The notes below the pieces were generated by a model. The model was not told the origin of the DNA, did not search any database, and worked only from the letters and a program-made list of their open reading frames with translations. The position numbers and the translations under genes are program-made. DNA of 64,000 bases, taken from IMG/VR virus record IMGVR_UViG_3300023202_000336, positions 96,001 to 160,000 of that record. One strand, 5' to 3'. Within the stretch, counting starts at the first letter, position 1; every line of letters begins with the position of its first letter. The DNA comes from a virus. Shown piece after piece: positions 5,803 through 19,171 of the stretch.

Positions 5803-6423
5803 TTAGCGTCTAGTTAGGGAAATCCAGGTAGCCTGTTCAGTAACGTCATCTTGTAAAAACAACGGATCGTTAGTAGCAAGTACTATATGTCTCCCCATGT
5901 TACGGGCCAAATATCTATCCGCTGGACAGTTATCGCTTTTAATAGCGCTATCACGGCATGCCTTTGATATTACTTTTAGAGAGTTCTCGACATAACTTTC
6001 AGTAACATGTAACACAGCATGAGTACCACACATATTAAGTATCCGTATACATTTAGAGCTATATTTATATATCGCTACTTTTCCTAGTTCAGAGTGACCG
6101 GGCCCTACTGGGCCATATAGAGAGTGGCCTAAGTATACGCGGTCTGTTTCGTCCGGTATATCTATGATAGGAGTATACCACCCTGTTTCTTTTGCGTCAT
6201 CTTCGAGTACCAAGGCCGGCAGTCTACCGCGTATGTAGCAGGCGGCATGGAAGGCAGCAAGGTTGGCACCAAGATATTTCTTTCTACTCTTAACCCCCGG
6301 GATTCTTTCGTGACGTGTAATACCAAGTCTCTCAAACATATTTTCGATGTTTTTACGACGCGCTACATCTTGATCTAAGTTAATGTAAAATACATTAACA
6401 TCTTTCCTGAGGTCGAGTTTCAT
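5803..6423 (-). CDS. Glycosyltransferase family 25-like protein
   Basis: FYINLDQDVARRKNIE and LVLEDDA motifs; start moved to ATG 6423, which overlaps the upstream gene stop (ATGA). Confidence 0.7.
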   Translation of the reverse strand: MKLDLRKDVNVFYINLDQDVARRKNIENMFERLGITRHERIPGVKSRKKYLGANLAAFHAACYIRGRLPALVLEDDAKETGWYTPIIDIPDETDRVYLGHSLYGPVGPGHSELGKVAIYKYSSKCIRILNMCGTHAVLHVTESYVENSLKVISKACRDSAIKSDNCPADRYLARNMGRHIVLATNDPLFLQDDVTEQATWISLTRR

Positions 6424-7646
6424 ATCATCCCCATCAATCGTAACCACTCGTTTGCAGTTTGTTTCGGTGAAGACTGCACGACTGGAGGCTGCACGTTGTT
6501 TACGGAATGCTCCCTGATTGTTTCAGCAATCATTTCAGCCGCCTCACGCGGATCGACGGTACGAATATACGAGTCGGGAGTATGTTCTGTTTCCCGCCCG
6601 GGATACCATTCGAAACGTGACGCTTCCAGCTCGATACCTCGTCCGTCGATGATCTCACCGGTTACGAAATCGTTCGGTCCAGCGACAAGAGTTCCAGCCG
6701 ACATCGCTTCTGCTACCGTAAAGTTCCAGCTATTTTTAAGTGAAGTGTCGAGTACGAGATCGCACGCGTTGTAGAGGTAGTTCATCTCTTGATCCGAAAG
6801 TCCTGGGGCTTTAGTCTTCTGATCGAAGAATCCGTATCCGAGTAGTATATCGTCCTCGAGTTCCAACTCGTTTCCGATCACGAGTGACTCGATATCGAGC
6901 CATTCGTTCTCGGTGTTAGCGGGTCGATATGGTGACATATGAAGGTAGCCTCTCACTTTTCCATCGATGAACGGATCTTTTTCGTTGAGAGTCTTCAGAT
7001 GCGCGATGGTCTGAATCGCGAGTGGGATCCCCTTCTTGATCGTCGGATTCCCGGAAACCAGTATGAGGAAGTCGTTCGGATCGACCTTTTCGTTGAAGAG
7101 ATGCTGACGAAGTTCCTCGGGCCCGTATTCGCCCGCATGTACGTTGAGTGGACGGAATATCGATGAATCTACCGCAGGCGGGATATACCACATATTCCGC
7201 GCAGCCACGTACGTATCGATATCTACCTTGTTCTCCTGCGTAGCTTCGATGAGTGCTTCCCGATAGGCGGCTCGAGCCATATATGAAGGCGTTACGAAAA
7301 AGTCGAATTTGGATACCGTTTTAAGATACTTCCCGTCGATAAAGGGAGTATCGATAAGGCCGTAACCGATCGAAAGACTATTGCGGACTTCCAGATTATC
7401 TGCCAGATCTTCGAGTGTCCCTATATCGAGTGTATGCGTAATACCCAGCGTTTTCTCAGCAGGTACGGCGTTTAGGACTTCTACGTTATCAGGGGGATCG
7501 AACTGATACGCCCCCTGGTAGGGGGCCCTGACGGCTACGAGAATACGTTCGAAGCGAGGCCCCCAGAGGGGGAGCATATCTTTGAGAAACCGCCCGAAAA
7601 GGTAGTGATCACCCGGGTGGGGGGAGCAGATCATGAGTTGAGCCAT
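6420..7646 (-). CDS. GT-B fold glycosyltransferase (GT4-like)
   Basis: PPAVDSSIFRP, VSGNPTIKKG, YNACDLVLDTSLKNSWNFTVAEAMSAG; start set at MAQLMI. Confidence 0.75.
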   Translation of the reverse strand: MAQLMICSPHPGDHYLFGRFLKDMLPLWGPRFERILVAVRAPYQGAYQFDPPDNVEVLNAVPAEKTLGITHTLDIGTLEDLADNLEVRNSLSIGYGLIDTPFIDGKYLKTVSKFDFFVTPSYMARAAYREALIEATQENKVDIDTYVAARNMWYIPPAVDSSIFRPLNVHAGEYGPEELRQHLFNEKVDPNDFLILVSGNPTIKKGIPLAIQTIAHLKTLNEKDPFIDGKVRGYLHMSPYRPANTENEWLDIESLVIGNELELEDDILLGYGFFDQKTKAPGLSDQEMNYLYNACDLVLDTSLKNSWNFTVAEAMSAGTLVAGPNDFVTGEIIDGRGIELEASRFEWYPGRETEHTPDSYIRTVDPREAAEMIAETIREHSVNNVQPPVVQSSPKQTANEWLRLMGMI

Positions 7647-7693
7647 CGCGCGAACGCTATTCCTATTTGAGGCAGTTGTCAACAACCTTGTGG

Positions 7694-7760
7694 TGCCCCC
7701 TCGAGGGGCTTTCCGTTATCTGTGAACGCGCGTACAAAATCGAAAGCCCCCTGGGGGGCA
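7694..7760. repeat. Imperfect inverted repeat in a divergent intergenic region
   Basis: tgccccctcgaggggctttccg (7694-7715) vs cgaaagccccctggggggca (7741-7760); each arm is itself near-palindromic. Confidence 0.5.
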
Positions 7761-7808
7761 TAGTGAATTCAGAGCCTTATTTACGTATATATAAATGAGG
7801 AAAGTTAT

Positions 7809-8409
7809 GCTATCGCAAGATAGCGTGGCTGGCAGCCGTAAAGCAATTTACGGTGGTCGCGCGGTTCTGAAGAATCGTGCGGCGGCGGAATCGCGATTCG
7901 TCGCGATTTCGTTTTGCCCTTGGTGGGACTGCGGTCCAGCGGACCGGGATCCTAAGGGATCCCGCTGCCGCCTTTCGGCGAAGTACGCCGGCACCTGGAG
8001 AGACGGTAATAAGCTCCGGGTGTAAAGCCCGCAAGGGTCAAAACCCGGAGTGAAATGGCCGTCTAGGAGTAAGCCCTACGTCATGAGGCATCTGAAACCG
8101 TCGTGACTCCTCCACGACAGACCCTCAGGGCAGCGTGAAAACAAAGCGCGTAAGACCAAGGTTCGGGCTGGTCCACGCTCGTAATAGAAGGACAAAACAA
8201 AACAAAAAGGATTAGGAGATGGCGCTCCGACATCCCATCTTCTTAACAGGGTACGTCCCTGAGAAGATGGCCTGCTATGTTACCCCTTGAGTGGGGAAGT
8301 TCCGCGAGGAGCAGGCGATGCCCGTTATCGATAAACGGGAAGTCTAAGGTATACCACCGCCCTTTGGTAGGAGTATATCGGAGGCGTTTTGTCCCGCGAT
8401 AGCAGCCAC
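7809..8409 (+). ncRNA. Candidate large (~600 nt) structured non-coding RNA, family not identified
   Basis: More than 10 hairpins, including three GCAA and one UUCG tetraloop; 5' segments pair with the 3' end (7825-7831/8403-8409; 7809-7816/8396-8403); AT-rich -10-like tatataaat upstream; no credible ORF. Confidence 0.65.
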
Positions 8410-8491
8410 CTCCACGCGGTGCGGGATGGACACTTGGCTTGTTGCCAGGTGACTAGGAGCTGCACGGCTGACCCGGACAGGAGACACGATC

Positions 8492-8896
8492 ATGAACATC
8501 GACCATACCGTCACCATCGACTACCTGCGGGCCTGGCGCGTCCGCCGTCTGCTGCGGCACCTGCCGCAGCACTACGAAGATGGCGGCGACCCCGACATCC
8601 CGCGCGGCGATGTCGGGGTCATCACTGGCCCCGGGATAGGGGCCGGGGAGCCCACGGGATACCGCGTCGAAGAGCGGGTAGTGGATGTCCCCGGATTCGG
8701 GGACATCCACGTCTGGATCCGACTGTCCTCTGGGCACCGGATCCAGGGTGGAGTCGTCGTGGGCTCAGGCACATGGAGGGTCCAGGACGCCTACGTCCCG
8801 GGCATGCAGGAGTTCGACATGGCTCAGCTGTCGGCCATCGTTGACCAGTTGGATGTCGACCTTCTGCGGCAGACTGAGGACCTACTAGACGCCTGA
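8492..8896 (+). CDS. Hypothetical protein (134 aa)
   Basis: AGGAG RBS upstream; GC3-rich codon usage. Confidence 0.65.
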   Translation: MNIDHTVTIDYLRAWRVRRLLRHLPQHYEDGGDPDIPRGDVGVITGPGIGAGEPTGYRVEERVVDVPGFGDIHVWIRLSSGHRIQGGVVVGSGTWRVQDAYVPGMQEFDMAQLSAIVDQLDVDLLRQTEDLLDA

Positions 8897-8989
8897 CCCG
8901 GACCAGGGCACCGTCTCCGCACGGTGCCCGCGCCCTGGCCACGCGTCATCACCACCGGCCCTTCGGGGCACACAGGAGACCTTCATGTT

Positions 8990-16677: not shown

Positions 16678-16691
16678 AAAGCAACCAACAG

Positions 16692-16718
16692 CGACCCACT
16701 GGGTCGTTTTTCTTTTTT
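16692..16718 (+). terminator. Intrinsic terminator 14 nt after solo repeat B
   Basis: cgaccc-act-gggtcg followed by tttttctttttt. Confidence 0.7.
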
Positions 16719-16733
16719 ACGGGAGGATTACCT

Positions 16734-17378
16734 ATGGCAAGACTGAGCCAAAAAGAAGTCATCAACACGATTCGCGATTGCTACGGCGATTTCGAATCGG
16801 TAAGGGAGGGCGATAACGTCCGGGCCTACATCGGCCCGGATATCGAGGTCGTCGTTCCCCCTGGCGGCCCATTCAAGGACCCCGTCGTGGTCAGCGTTCC
16901 CGAGGAACGTATGCACTACGAGTTTCCGATTACCGCGGGTGGCATCGGCGATGCGGTCTTCTTCTTGAGAAAGAAGACCGCATCGCTGAAGGTCAAAGAC
17001 GGCAAGCGGCTCAAGAAAAACGAGCTGATCGCCCGTCGTGCCCTGTGGATGGCCTTCAAGGCCGCAGTCCCGCTCGAGAGCAAAATCCTCCACGTCGAAG
17101 ACGAGGAGGTGCTTTCCGAGAAGGAGCTGTGGAAGAAGGTGCAACCGAGCAGAACCGAAACGAAGTGGTCCATATTTCTCCGGTACCACTTCGGTCGGGC
17201 GCTCAACCTCAGCATCTGCTGGAACCGGGACGAGGTATGGATCGAACCCGACATCCTGACTCCCGGACGGCAGTCCTGGGTGAGTTCGTACAAGAGTGGA
17301 AGGGATCTCATCGCGAAAGCGATCGAATCAATCCGCGACGAGATCAAGGCACTGCGCGGTGCAGTGATTTTCAGGTGA
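16734..17378 (+). CDS. Hypothetical protein (214 aa)
   Basis: GGAGG RBS; GC3-rich codon usage. Confidence 0.7.
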   Translation: MARLSQKEVINTIRDCYGDFESVREGDNVRAYIGPDIEVVVPPGGPFKDPVVVSVPEERMHYEFPITAGGIGDAVFFLRKKTASLKVKDGKRLKKNELIARRALWMAFKAAVPLESKILHVEDEEVLSEKELWKKVQPSRTETKWSIFLRYHFGRALNLSICWNRDEVWIEPDILTPGRQSWVSSYKSGRDLIAKAIESIRDEIKALRGAVIFR

Positions 17379-17380
17379 TC

Positions 17381-18496
17381 ATGAAAGGTTGGAAAGAGCT
17401 ACGGCCGAATGGTCGCCAACTTGCCGAGTACTGCGGAGAAGACGGAATCGGGTTCGACTATATCCGTTTCTCCAAAGGACCCGGCAGAACCGAGGCGAAG
17501 GAATTCGCCTCGGAAGAATCCCTCGCCGAATTCCTCGATTCAGGAGGTTTTACGCGATTTCCCTGCGTGTACGTAAAAGCACGAGGATACAAATCAAAGC
17601 GTAAAGCCAGAGTCCATGTCGGTGAGGGGACGCTCGTGGTAGCCATGGAGAACGGTATCACCGTTTCTCGCATGAGAGTTACCGTGAGCAACAGCTACCA
17701 AGAGGAGAGCTACGTGAGGGACAAAAAAGAGTCTCTGCAGGTGCGCAGAGAAAAAGTTCTCGACCGCTTGAGAGTGGTCGAGGCCAACGAGAGTAATACA
17801 GGCGCTGAATCTGCGTTGGGTTCGCGCTACCGTCATCAACTCAGTGAGATTGAGAAAGCAATTTCACGTGCCGAGGAAAGGGACGAAATGTCCGACATCG
17901 ATAAGACCGAAACCGAGATCGAGAAGACCGAGGTCAGCAAGGCCATCGAACCCCACGAGGAGCAGGAGAAGGCGATCGAGCGCAGCCTCGCGCGTGTCTC
18001 CGCCAGCGACGACGACAAGGGCAAGGCCAAGGAGGCCGAGAAGCCCGCGGACCGCAAGCGTGACCATCGCCCGCGCAATCGTCGTCACGAGATCACGGAT
18101 GAAGATGCGTTCAACTTCATCTTCTACGGCTCGCTGACTCCTCCGAGTACCGAGTACCTCCTCGCCGACGAGGTCCTCGATCGTCACGGCGGCTTCCTCG
18201 ACATCGGCGCCATCAAGCGTCTCATGAAGGCCGGCCGGTGCACCATCTGGCTCAACCCGGATGAAAACCCCGTCGAGCAGCTCGGCGGCGAAAAGGTAAA
18301 ACCCACCTACAACGGGTTCCTGGTCAAGAACGACCACGGGAAGTGGGTCGACCCCGAGTGCCGCGTGAACGGCGTGGTGGTGCGGATGGCCGCGATCGAG
18401 ATCGCCTTCAAATACCGGTACTACGATCGTACCGATACCTACATGATGCAGGTGGACTTCCGCATCCACCGCGCTGCACTCGACGTCGTCGAGTGA
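17381..18496 (+). CDS. Hypothetical protein (371 aa), with a possible second in-frame start at 17888
   Basis: Within track ORF 17045..18496; codon bias shifts at MSDIDKTE (17888), which has its own RBS-like ggaaaggga. Confidence 0.55.
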   Translation: MKGWKELRPNGRQLAEYCGEDGIGFDYIRFSKGPGRTEAKEFASEESLAEFLDSGGFTRFPCVYVKARGYKSKRKARVHVGEGTLVVAMENGITVSRMRVTVSNSYQEESYVRDKKESLQVRREKVLDRLRVVEANESNTGAESALGSRYRHQLSEIEKAISRAEERDEMSDIDKTETEIEKTEVSKAIEPHEEQEKAIERSLARVSASDDDKGKAKEAEKPADRKRDHRPRNRRHEITDEDAFNFIFYGSLTPPSTEYLLADEVLDRHGGFLDIGAIKRLMKAGRCTIWLNPDENPVEQLGGEKVKPTYNGFLVKNDHGKWVDPECRVNGVVVRMAAIEIAFKYRYYDRTDTYMMQVDFRIHRAALDVVE

Positions 18497-18536
18497 AGAA
18501 AGAGGGGCCGGCTGTACGGCCGGCCCCTCTTTCTTC
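18495..18536. terminator. Bidirectional intrinsic terminator
   Basis: Perfect 18-bp inverted repeat gaagaaagaggggccggc / gccggcccctctttcttc with a 6-nt loop. Confidence 0.9.
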
Positions 18537-18598
18537 TTTAGTTTGGCGGGCGTAATCCCGTCACGGGGTAGTTGTACCCTACAAAAAGGAGGTCGTGT

Positions 18599-19171
18599 AT
18601 GACCATGATAAGAGTGGACGCGACGGATCTCGCGAAAGATCTCGTGAAGGCGGCGTATTCGCATCGCGGGATCATCAGCGAAGGACGTCTCGTCCAGTTT
18701 CGGCTTCTCATCGGGAAAACCGACGTCTCGTTGTCGTCGGTTCTCGAAGAGATAGCCCTCATACCGGGGAACTGGATAGAGGGGAAAGTAACCCCCGAAG
18801 TCGAAGGCAAAGAGAAGTCGGCGCATATGGTCATCAAGATCGTTGCGAACATGATCGGAGCCTACATATCGACGTCGTTCAAGTTCCTGGGAGAAAAGCT
18901 GGAAGCACACAAAAACAATTCAGAAGAAGTCTTCGAAGAGTTCAAGTCGATGAGAAGTCGGCTCCTTCGTGCGTCGAAGCTGATCCAGCCCCTGGTATTT
19001 CTCGATAAGAAGTGGGAGATGGTGGAGCCCCACCATGTCGAAGCAATCGCGGAGAACATCGAAGACGCTCACAAAAGGCTCGGCTCCACCGGTCTTACGA
19101 TGTTCTTGGGTCCGGGGACACTGGACGCAGTCCGCACATGGTACTCCGAACTCGAACTCGAGGAGGAGTAG
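18599..19171 (+). CDS. Hypothetical protein (190 aa)
   Basis: AAGGAGG RBS before ATG 18599. Confidence 0.7.
   Translation: MTMIRVDATDLAKDLVKAAYSHRGIISEGRLVQFRLLIGKTDVSLSSVLEEIALIPGNWIEGKVTPEVEGKEKSAHMVIKIVANMIGAYISTSFKFLGEKLEAHKNNSEEVFEEFKSMRSRLLRASKLIQPLVFLDKKWEMVEPHHVEAIAENIEDAHKRLGSTGLTMFLGPGTLDAVRTWYSELELEEE

Follow-up and report, generated by a model that had tools for sequence, protein, structure and literature searches.

A candidate 589-nucleotide structured non-coding RNA in an uncultured soil phage, followed by a predicted delta-type ribozyme

What is encoded in an 800-bp gap without recognizable genes, at a point where the leftward and rightward genes of an uncultured soil phage diverge, is the question raised by this locus. 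The DNA analysed, referred to as the window, is a stretch of 64,000 nucleotides (nt) comprising bases 96001-160000 of IMG/VR record IMGVR_UViG_3300023202_000336, a complete virus record of 180,134 base pairs (bp) with direct terminal repeats. The gap lies between a glycosyltransferase gene on the minus strand (6420-7685, leftward) and an orphan gene of 134 amino acids (aa) on the plus strand (8492-8896), and it holds a candidate structured non-coding RNA of about 589 nt at 7802-8390 on the plus strand. An earlier reading of the sequence only had proposed a non-coding RNA of about 600 nt here. With moderate confidence, we favour the reading that 7802-8390 is the gene for a stand-alone, densely folded RNA of a new, narrow family, the tail of which is set by a terminator and a hepatitis delta virus (HDV)-like ribozyme.

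The folding of the stretch is strong and depends on the strand. On the plus strand, 7790-8420 reaches -281.7 kcal/mol against -220.8 +/- 7.4 kcal/mol for dinucleotide shuffles (z -8.19), whereas the minus strand reaches z -3.98 against the same type of control. The plus strand folds better because many of its pairs are G.U, which become C.A mismatches on the other strand, and because its loops are typical of RNA (GCAA three times, UUCG, and UGAA). Each half is also well folded separately (z -7.0 for 7802-8190 and z -4.7 for 8199-8390), and pair probability exceeds 0.7 in 21 helices. When the genome is divided into 305 non-overlapping segments of 590 nt, this one has the lowest GC-corrected energy, by a modest margin (residual z -3.8, next -3.5).

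In the predicted fold, a 5′ domain (7803-8179) is followed by an A-rich linker (8190-8208) and by a 3′ domain of multiple hairpins (8199-8390), which can be closed by an AAAAC/GUUUU helix, the sole loop-loop pairing found among the unpaired segments in a screen for pseudoknots. All of the hairpins named in the earlier reading are present in the sequence. The first, gctatc-GCAA-gatagc (7809-7824), is lengthened by folding to 12 bp over 7803-7830, and is followed by ccgtaaa-GCAA-tttacgg (7836-7853), a stem that had been described as 9 bp and comprises 12 bp with a UGAA loop (7856-7883), a hairpin with a UUCG loop (7887-7910), the cggtcc/ggaccg hairpin (7932-7946), and gggatcc-UAAG-ggatccc (7946-7963). 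Further along the plus strand are a stem around gccc-GCAA-gggt (8013-8051), the hairpin GUCGUG-ACUCCUC-CACGAC (8100-8118), with a CU-rich loop that resembles an anti-Shine-Dalgarno sequence, a hairpin at 8236-8269, and a helix formed by 8270-8276 with 8310-8316.

This RNA could not be placed in a described family, in agreement with the earlier suggestion that it may be new: across the whole window every Rfam family stays below its gathering score, and over 7500-8600 there is no match to ROOL, GOLLD, OLE, intron, RNase P, transfer-messenger RNA or riboswitch models at E<=10. The likeness to ROOL, GOLLD and OLE that had been noted holds for size and style, however the covariance models give nothing even at this permissive threshold. 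Exact patterns taken from the RNA were equally uninformative; an 18-mer (7908-7925) has six chance matches in coding DNA of viral contigs, one of them the reverse complement of a Walker-A sequence, a 20-mer (7917-7936) has two chance matches in metagenome contigs, and three more patterns have none in viral and genome contigs, negatives that are limited in that some of the early patterns may span unlisted differences in a relative.

Conservation was assessed from five public sequencing runs that hold the stretch. Four belong to one study (two being possibly the source of this DNA), and X1, X3 and X4 of that study are identical over the parts that their contigs cover. Another study supplies the fifth, X5, a soil metagenome in which a 680-nt contig is about 90% identical to the stretch in three blocks (7743-7937, 8059-8197 and 8300-8388), the sequence between the blocks being replaced by unlike sequence of near-equal length (121 nt by 117 nt, and 102 nt by 97 nt). 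Blocks 2 and 3 contain single-base insertions or deletions that are not multiples of three and are not coding, because these break every reading frame. Sixteen substitutions are listed, with no changes listed within about 32 nt of the end of a piece; compared with the minimum-energy fold, 10 keep a pair, three fall at unpaired positions and three break a pair. The 10 pair-keeping positions comprise eight one-sided changes and both sides of the pair G8100-C8118, which becomes A-U through 8100 G>A and 8118 C>T on one contig; this pair closes a hairpin in which 8101-8117 has no listed change. The first hairpin is likewise kept, through a change from G-C to G.U. Measured against helices of probability above 0.7, six changes keep and one breaks a pair (P = 0.027 by random re-placing of the substitutions). 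The changes in X5 thus support the fold, although they are not proof of it. The proposal of a non-coding RNA of about 600 nt is upheld by a stretch that is gene-free and strongly folded on one strand, with blocks conserved in a second phage lineage; as it also matches no Rfam family and the changes in its blocks mostly preserve pairs, the reading that fits best is a large non-coding RNA from a family not yet described.

The 3′ end is the part of the original proposal that changes most. A weak intrinsic-terminator-like element occupies 8359-8390 on the plus strand, consisting of a local hairpin (8359-8386, -12.2 kcal/mol) followed by G-UUUU, with only four U residues in this phage. The likeness of X5 stops at 8388 and continues as CTTTTTTTTTT (C plus ten T), so that the UUUU and ribozyme motif of this phage are matched in position by a strong U-run in X5. 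X5 also carries three inserted bases within the predicted terminator stem, the list of changes stopping 30 nt short of the end of its contig.

An HDV-like self-cleaving ribozyme motif (8391-8463, plus strand) begins exactly one base past the U-run, with the predicted cut between U8390 and G8391. Its first paired region, P1, joins GUCCCGC (8391-8397) with GCGGGAU (8421-8427) in 7 bp starting at the cleavage site, where 6-7 bp are characteristic of the fold, and opens with G8391.U8427, the expected G1.U pair. The joining segment J1/2 (8398-8401) leads to P2, a pseudoknot of GCAGC (8402-8406) with GCUGC (8459-8463), and P3 is formed by ACC (8408-8410) with GGU (8418-8420), giving the 3 bp that are usual, with an L3 loop (8411-8417, UCCACGC) within the usual 7-8 nt. 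P1.1 may form between C8412 and C8413 and the pair of G residues at 8428 and 8429, as judged from complementarity only. A P4 hairpin of 8 bp with a 5-nt loop (8431-8438 with 8444-8451) precedes J4/2 (A-C8453-U-A-G), which holds the presumed catalytic C8453 one base in from P4, where a C-N-R-A at the very start of this segment is expected. The Rfam model RF02682 (Faecalibacterium prausnitzii HDV ribozyme) matches 8391-8462 with 25 bits (E 0.033 over 1.1 kb and 0.0032 over 106 nt), RF01787 (drz-agam-1) overlaps the same site with 19.1 bits, and both models align the P3-L3-P1'-GGA core. A hand-written HDV descriptor finds this site alone on both strands of the 180-kb genome. U8390 is the most probable end of the RNA, and not 8409 as first supposed; 8396-8410 belong to the ribozyme motif.

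At the 5′ end, a -10-like box, TATAAA, lies at 7790-7795 on the plus strand. The substitution 7795 A>T in X5 turns it into the consensus TATAAT, which suggests that transcription starts at approximately 7802, just before the first hairpin. Upstream of this putative promoter, between it and the glycosyltransferase start (7685), is a long imperfect inverted repeat (7693-7761) with arms of about 19 bp that form two GC-rich hairpin halves (7695-7709 and 7746-7759; cores GCCCCCTCGAGGGGC and GCCCCCTGGGGGGC). It folds with z -4.2 on each strand, has terminator-like sites on both, and gives chance-level Rfam matches to microRNA hairpins that reflect its long stem. The right arm is kept in X5. The repeat looks like a two-way terminator or insulator.

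These features suggest a mechanism by which the RNA would be made. It would be transcribed rightward from its own promoter, with the -10 box at 7790-7795, where the gene directions diverge. Some polymerases would halt at the weak terminator, hairpin 8359-8386 with UUUU, leaving a 3′ end at U8390, while in read-through transcripts the ribozyme at 8391-8463 would fold and cut just 5′ of its own first base, freeing the same 589-nt RNA with a 2′,3′-cyclic phosphate and leaving the downstream message, with the genes from 8492 on, a 5′-hydroxyl and a folded ribozyme at its head. Both routes would yield the same tail because the ribozyme is predicted to cut one base past the U-run. The terminal UUUU could then pair with the A-rich linker (AAAAC), tucking the tail in. 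Our best guess is that the freed RNA acts in trans during infection, as a folded scaffold or decoy, by analogy with the role assumed for the large phage RNAs ROOL and GOLLD (PMC12286853).

Several observations weigh against the stand-alone RNA and its ribozyme-defined tail. No -35 box is found by a consensus scan, and none of the listed runs that hold the stretch is on record as RNA. X5 is a single relative, visible as a table of differences only. In the minimum-energy fold, three or fewer broken pairs arise with P = 0.08 when the substitutions are randomly re-placed, a modest figure, and while local hairpins are robust, the long-range helices shift with the ends chosen for folding. The changes listed in X5 within a 72-aa open reading frame (ORF) at 7807-8025, two synonymous and one Val to Ile, also fit a small protein. 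As for the ribozyme, J4/2 has an extra A8452 between P4 and the presumed catalytic C, which the drz-agam-1 model aligns one position off, and the descriptor was written after the site had been seen, so that its rate of 0.125 sites per simulated genome is only indicative. Both Rfam matches fall below gathering (25 against 44 bits for RF02682, and 19.1 against 37 for RF01787); it is membership of these two families that fails and not the fold class, because the models do not score pseudoknots.

Among the other explanations, the one ranked highest, although we consider it unlikely, treats the 590 nt as a cis-acting 5′ untranslated leader of the rightward accessory operon that extends from 8492 towards the Cas12m locus, in which the sensing of a signal would decide between stopping at 8386-8390 and reading on, and the ribozyme would merely trim the leader. 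The stretch does head a long run of plus-strand genes, a terminator-like hairpin ends it just before the first of these, and a U-run that is weak here (U4) and strong in X5 (T10) fits tunable read-through. HDV-like ribozymes reportedly occur in 5′ leaders of bacterial genes as well. However, no alternative anti-terminator pairing stands out, the switch between the 5′ and 3′ ends that had been proposed is at chance level, and riboswitch and T-box models give no match. Known leaders are far smaller than an RNA of 590 nt carrying about 20 stable hairpins capped by tetraloops, and the gene that follows is an orphan, perhaps inserted recently. Detachment of the leader by a ribozyme, moreover, speaks for a product that exists in its own right.

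That proposed switch belongs to the model of the sequence-only reading, in which there is no active ribozyme and the RNA runs to about 8410, closed by pairing of 7809-7816 and 7825-7831 with 8396-8410 and possibly switching with the first hairpin. The complementarity of 8 and 7 bp is present in the sequence (7809-7816 with 8396-8403, and 7825-7831 with 8404-8410) and the pairing is part of the minimum-energy fold of a sequence truncated at 8420; the sub-gathering scores of the ribozyme matches also leave room for it. With the sequence extended to 8470, however, it is lost from the minimum-energy fold, and its strength is ordinary: other parts of the RNA offer the 3′ segment a duplex at least as good, and 24% of shuffled segments pair equally well. 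The first hairpin, with which it would compete, is very stable (-16.5 kcal/mol, 93% of the ensemble) and kept in X5, whereas the partner segment is not conserved there, the likeness ending at 8388 before the T-run. The same bases, 8396-8410, form parts of J1/2, P2 and P3 in the ribozyme motif and fit all helices of an HDV fold. The closing helix is thus not sustained, and the model as a whole appears improbable.

A small-protein gene is more doubtful still. The 72-aa ORF (7807-8025, plus strand), for which the structure would be incidental or would regulate translation, is the sole ORF called in the stretch, being listed as a gene in a public collection, has a good ribosome-site-like motif, GAGGAAAG, just upstream, and shows the conservative changes in X5 described above. 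Its codon-usage score of 0.036 per codon is nevertheless below the 5th percentile of real gene pieces, although above off-frame pieces, and its product has no relatives in a set of 5.8 billion proteins and no PHROG or other family match. The start codon is buried in the 12-bp stem, and a -10 box at 7790-7795 would place the ribosome site no later than the start of the transcript. The second half of the ORF falls in a block that X5 replaces with a 4-nt change in length, whereas conservation runs 360 nt past the stop codon, in blocks with frame-breaking insertions and deletions. Finally, a DNA-level element such as a replication origin or protein-binding region, in which the inverted repeats act as DNA, would suit the switch in gene direction near the cumulative GC skew minimum and the symmetry of the neighbouring 7693-7761 repeat on both strands, but is very improbable given that one strand folds much better (z -8.2 against -4.0) through G.U pairs, that GNRA and UUCG loops are relevant in RNA only, and that the single-copy stretch has no iterons or repeated boxes.

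The genome that would encode this stand-alone RNA is deeply divergent. Among 50,697 phage records, no DNA polymerase of a cultured phage exceeds 24% identity to its own, blastn against cultured phages gives no match, and the neighbouring proteins and the DNA polymerase retrieve nothing from viral contigs. A protein 95% identical to the glycosyltransferase beside the RNA, P0003, is encoded on a 57-kb Joint Genome Institute (JGI) contig, which is probably that of a sister phage; P0003 searched in genome contigs yields only an unrelated metagenome-assembled genome. The DUF6745 gene, which is next after the 134-aa gene in the long rightward run, belongs to a large family (4473 matches) and is uninformative on the RNA. 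The RNA candidate itself sits at the divergence of the two gene directions, near the cumulative GC skew minimum of the window; no second copy or repeat family of it occurs in the phage genome, the stretch has no internal repeats, and no motif shared with its promoter is found elsewhere in the genome. A Cas12m-type gene (Pfam match) and a CRISPR array lie 3.4 kb downstream. A link between the RNA and the Cas12m system of the phage was considered and dropped, there being no copy of the CRISPR repeat in or beside the RNA.

The orphan 134-aa gene (8492-8896) has a codon-usage score of 0.218 per codon, typical of the genes of this phage, and a ribosome site, AGGAGA, at 8479-8484, 15 nt past the ribozyme; its product has no relatives in the same 5.8-billion-protein set and no family match. 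An exact 11-bp direct repeat on the plus strand, CTGACCCGGAC (8468-8478 and 8893-8903), brackets this gene behind the ribozyme, and for this reason the gene may be a cassette inserted there. The repeat is statistically weak, as three matches at <=1 mismatch also arise in 5 of 100 shuffles.

A number of further observations concern the RNA and its surroundings. UAGGAG occurs at 8064-8069, 8213-8218 and 8368-8373 in the RNA and at 8454-8459 in the ribozyme, with 35 occurrences on the plus strand of the whole genome and 0.11 expected per 589 nt, a comparison counted after the fact; enrichment of the shorter AGGAG in the stretch is not significant, an equal count being found in 6% of genome windows. 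The loop ACUCCUC (8106-8112), which is conserved, is the complement of AGGAGU. Pairing within or between molecules, or binding of ribosome sites, may be considered. The hairpin CCCGUU-AUCGAUA-AACGGG (8321-8339) has a self-complementary loop core (AUCGAU/UCGA), of the kind able to form kissing dimers, and X5 is without one base of this loop (listed at 8327). Elsewhere in the window, three 590-nt segments within 16691-19050 (starts 16691, 17281 and 18461) are nearly as extreme in GC-corrected folding energy (residual z -3.35 to -3.5), though long ORFs cover that region.

Comparison with known systems places the predicted arrangement closest to two groups of phage elements. Theta ribozymes are minimal HDV-like ribozymes of gut phages, with a very short P4 and L4 and a cut site that abuts, within 5 nt, the 3′ ends of transfer RNAs (tRNAs) (Kienbeck et al. 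2024, PMC10879173). As in those, a delta-type motif lies here in a phage non-coding region in the sense direction, and its predicted cut falls right at the 3′ end of a structured RNA upstream, which would be trimmed by a ribozyme instead of a nuclease. In contrast to theta ribozymes, the upstream RNA is 589 nt long, belongs to no known family and is not a tRNA, in a phage for which ARAGORN finds no tRNA genes in the window or the whole genome; P4 is full (8 bp, 5-nt loop) where theta ribozymes have the minimal form, so that the motif is not a theta ribozyme; and the habitat is soil and not gut, with the site coinciding with a terminator-like U-run. Published cases of delta-type 3′ trimming concern phage tRNAs only (PMC10879173), and a literature search found no published HDV-like ribozyme that ends a large phage non-coding RNA. 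With RF02682 and RF01787 the motif shares the order of strands, the helices and a near-identical core (ACC-UCCnCGn-GGU, then the P1 strand and GGA), but it differs in its scores below gathering and the extra A before the presumed catalytic C in J4/2, and its activity is predicted only.

The second group, ROOL and GOLLD, builds RNA-only cages (PMC12286853). The candidate resembles these RNAs (PMC12286853) in being phage-encoded and of the 600-800 nt class, with very many hairpins and A-rich junctions, an unstructured A-rich linker between domains and no associated protein known. Unlike them, it has no model match, does not lie beside tRNA genes, as GOLLD often does, and has been seen in two phage lineages only. 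OLE, an RNA of about 600 nt from Bacillota, is similar in size class and degree of folding, but again its model does not match, and the candidate is carried by a phage and not a bacterial chromosome, with flanking genes for glycosyltransferases, an orphan protein and a DUF6745 protein where oapA/oapB-type neighbours are absent.

RNAs that are large, highly folded and of no known role form a rare group, in which a handful of classes are described, each having repaid study. It is possible, although we regard it as a tentative proposal, that the RNA is the founding member of a new large "ornate" phage RNA class, namely RNA-only machines such as self-assembling scaffolds or ribosome or protein decoys, with ends that a built-in HDV-like ribozyme cuts out of a longer transcript. 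Adding a class from so novel a phage of soil would extend the known set past gut, rumen and marine sources. The placement of the motif also suggests a simple rule, in which a delta-type ribozyme one base past a weak terminator would give an RNA the same tail whether or not the polymerase stops, and would give the next message a protected 5′ end as well. If this rule is true, searching metagenomes for ribozyme motifs could reveal where unknown viral RNAs end.

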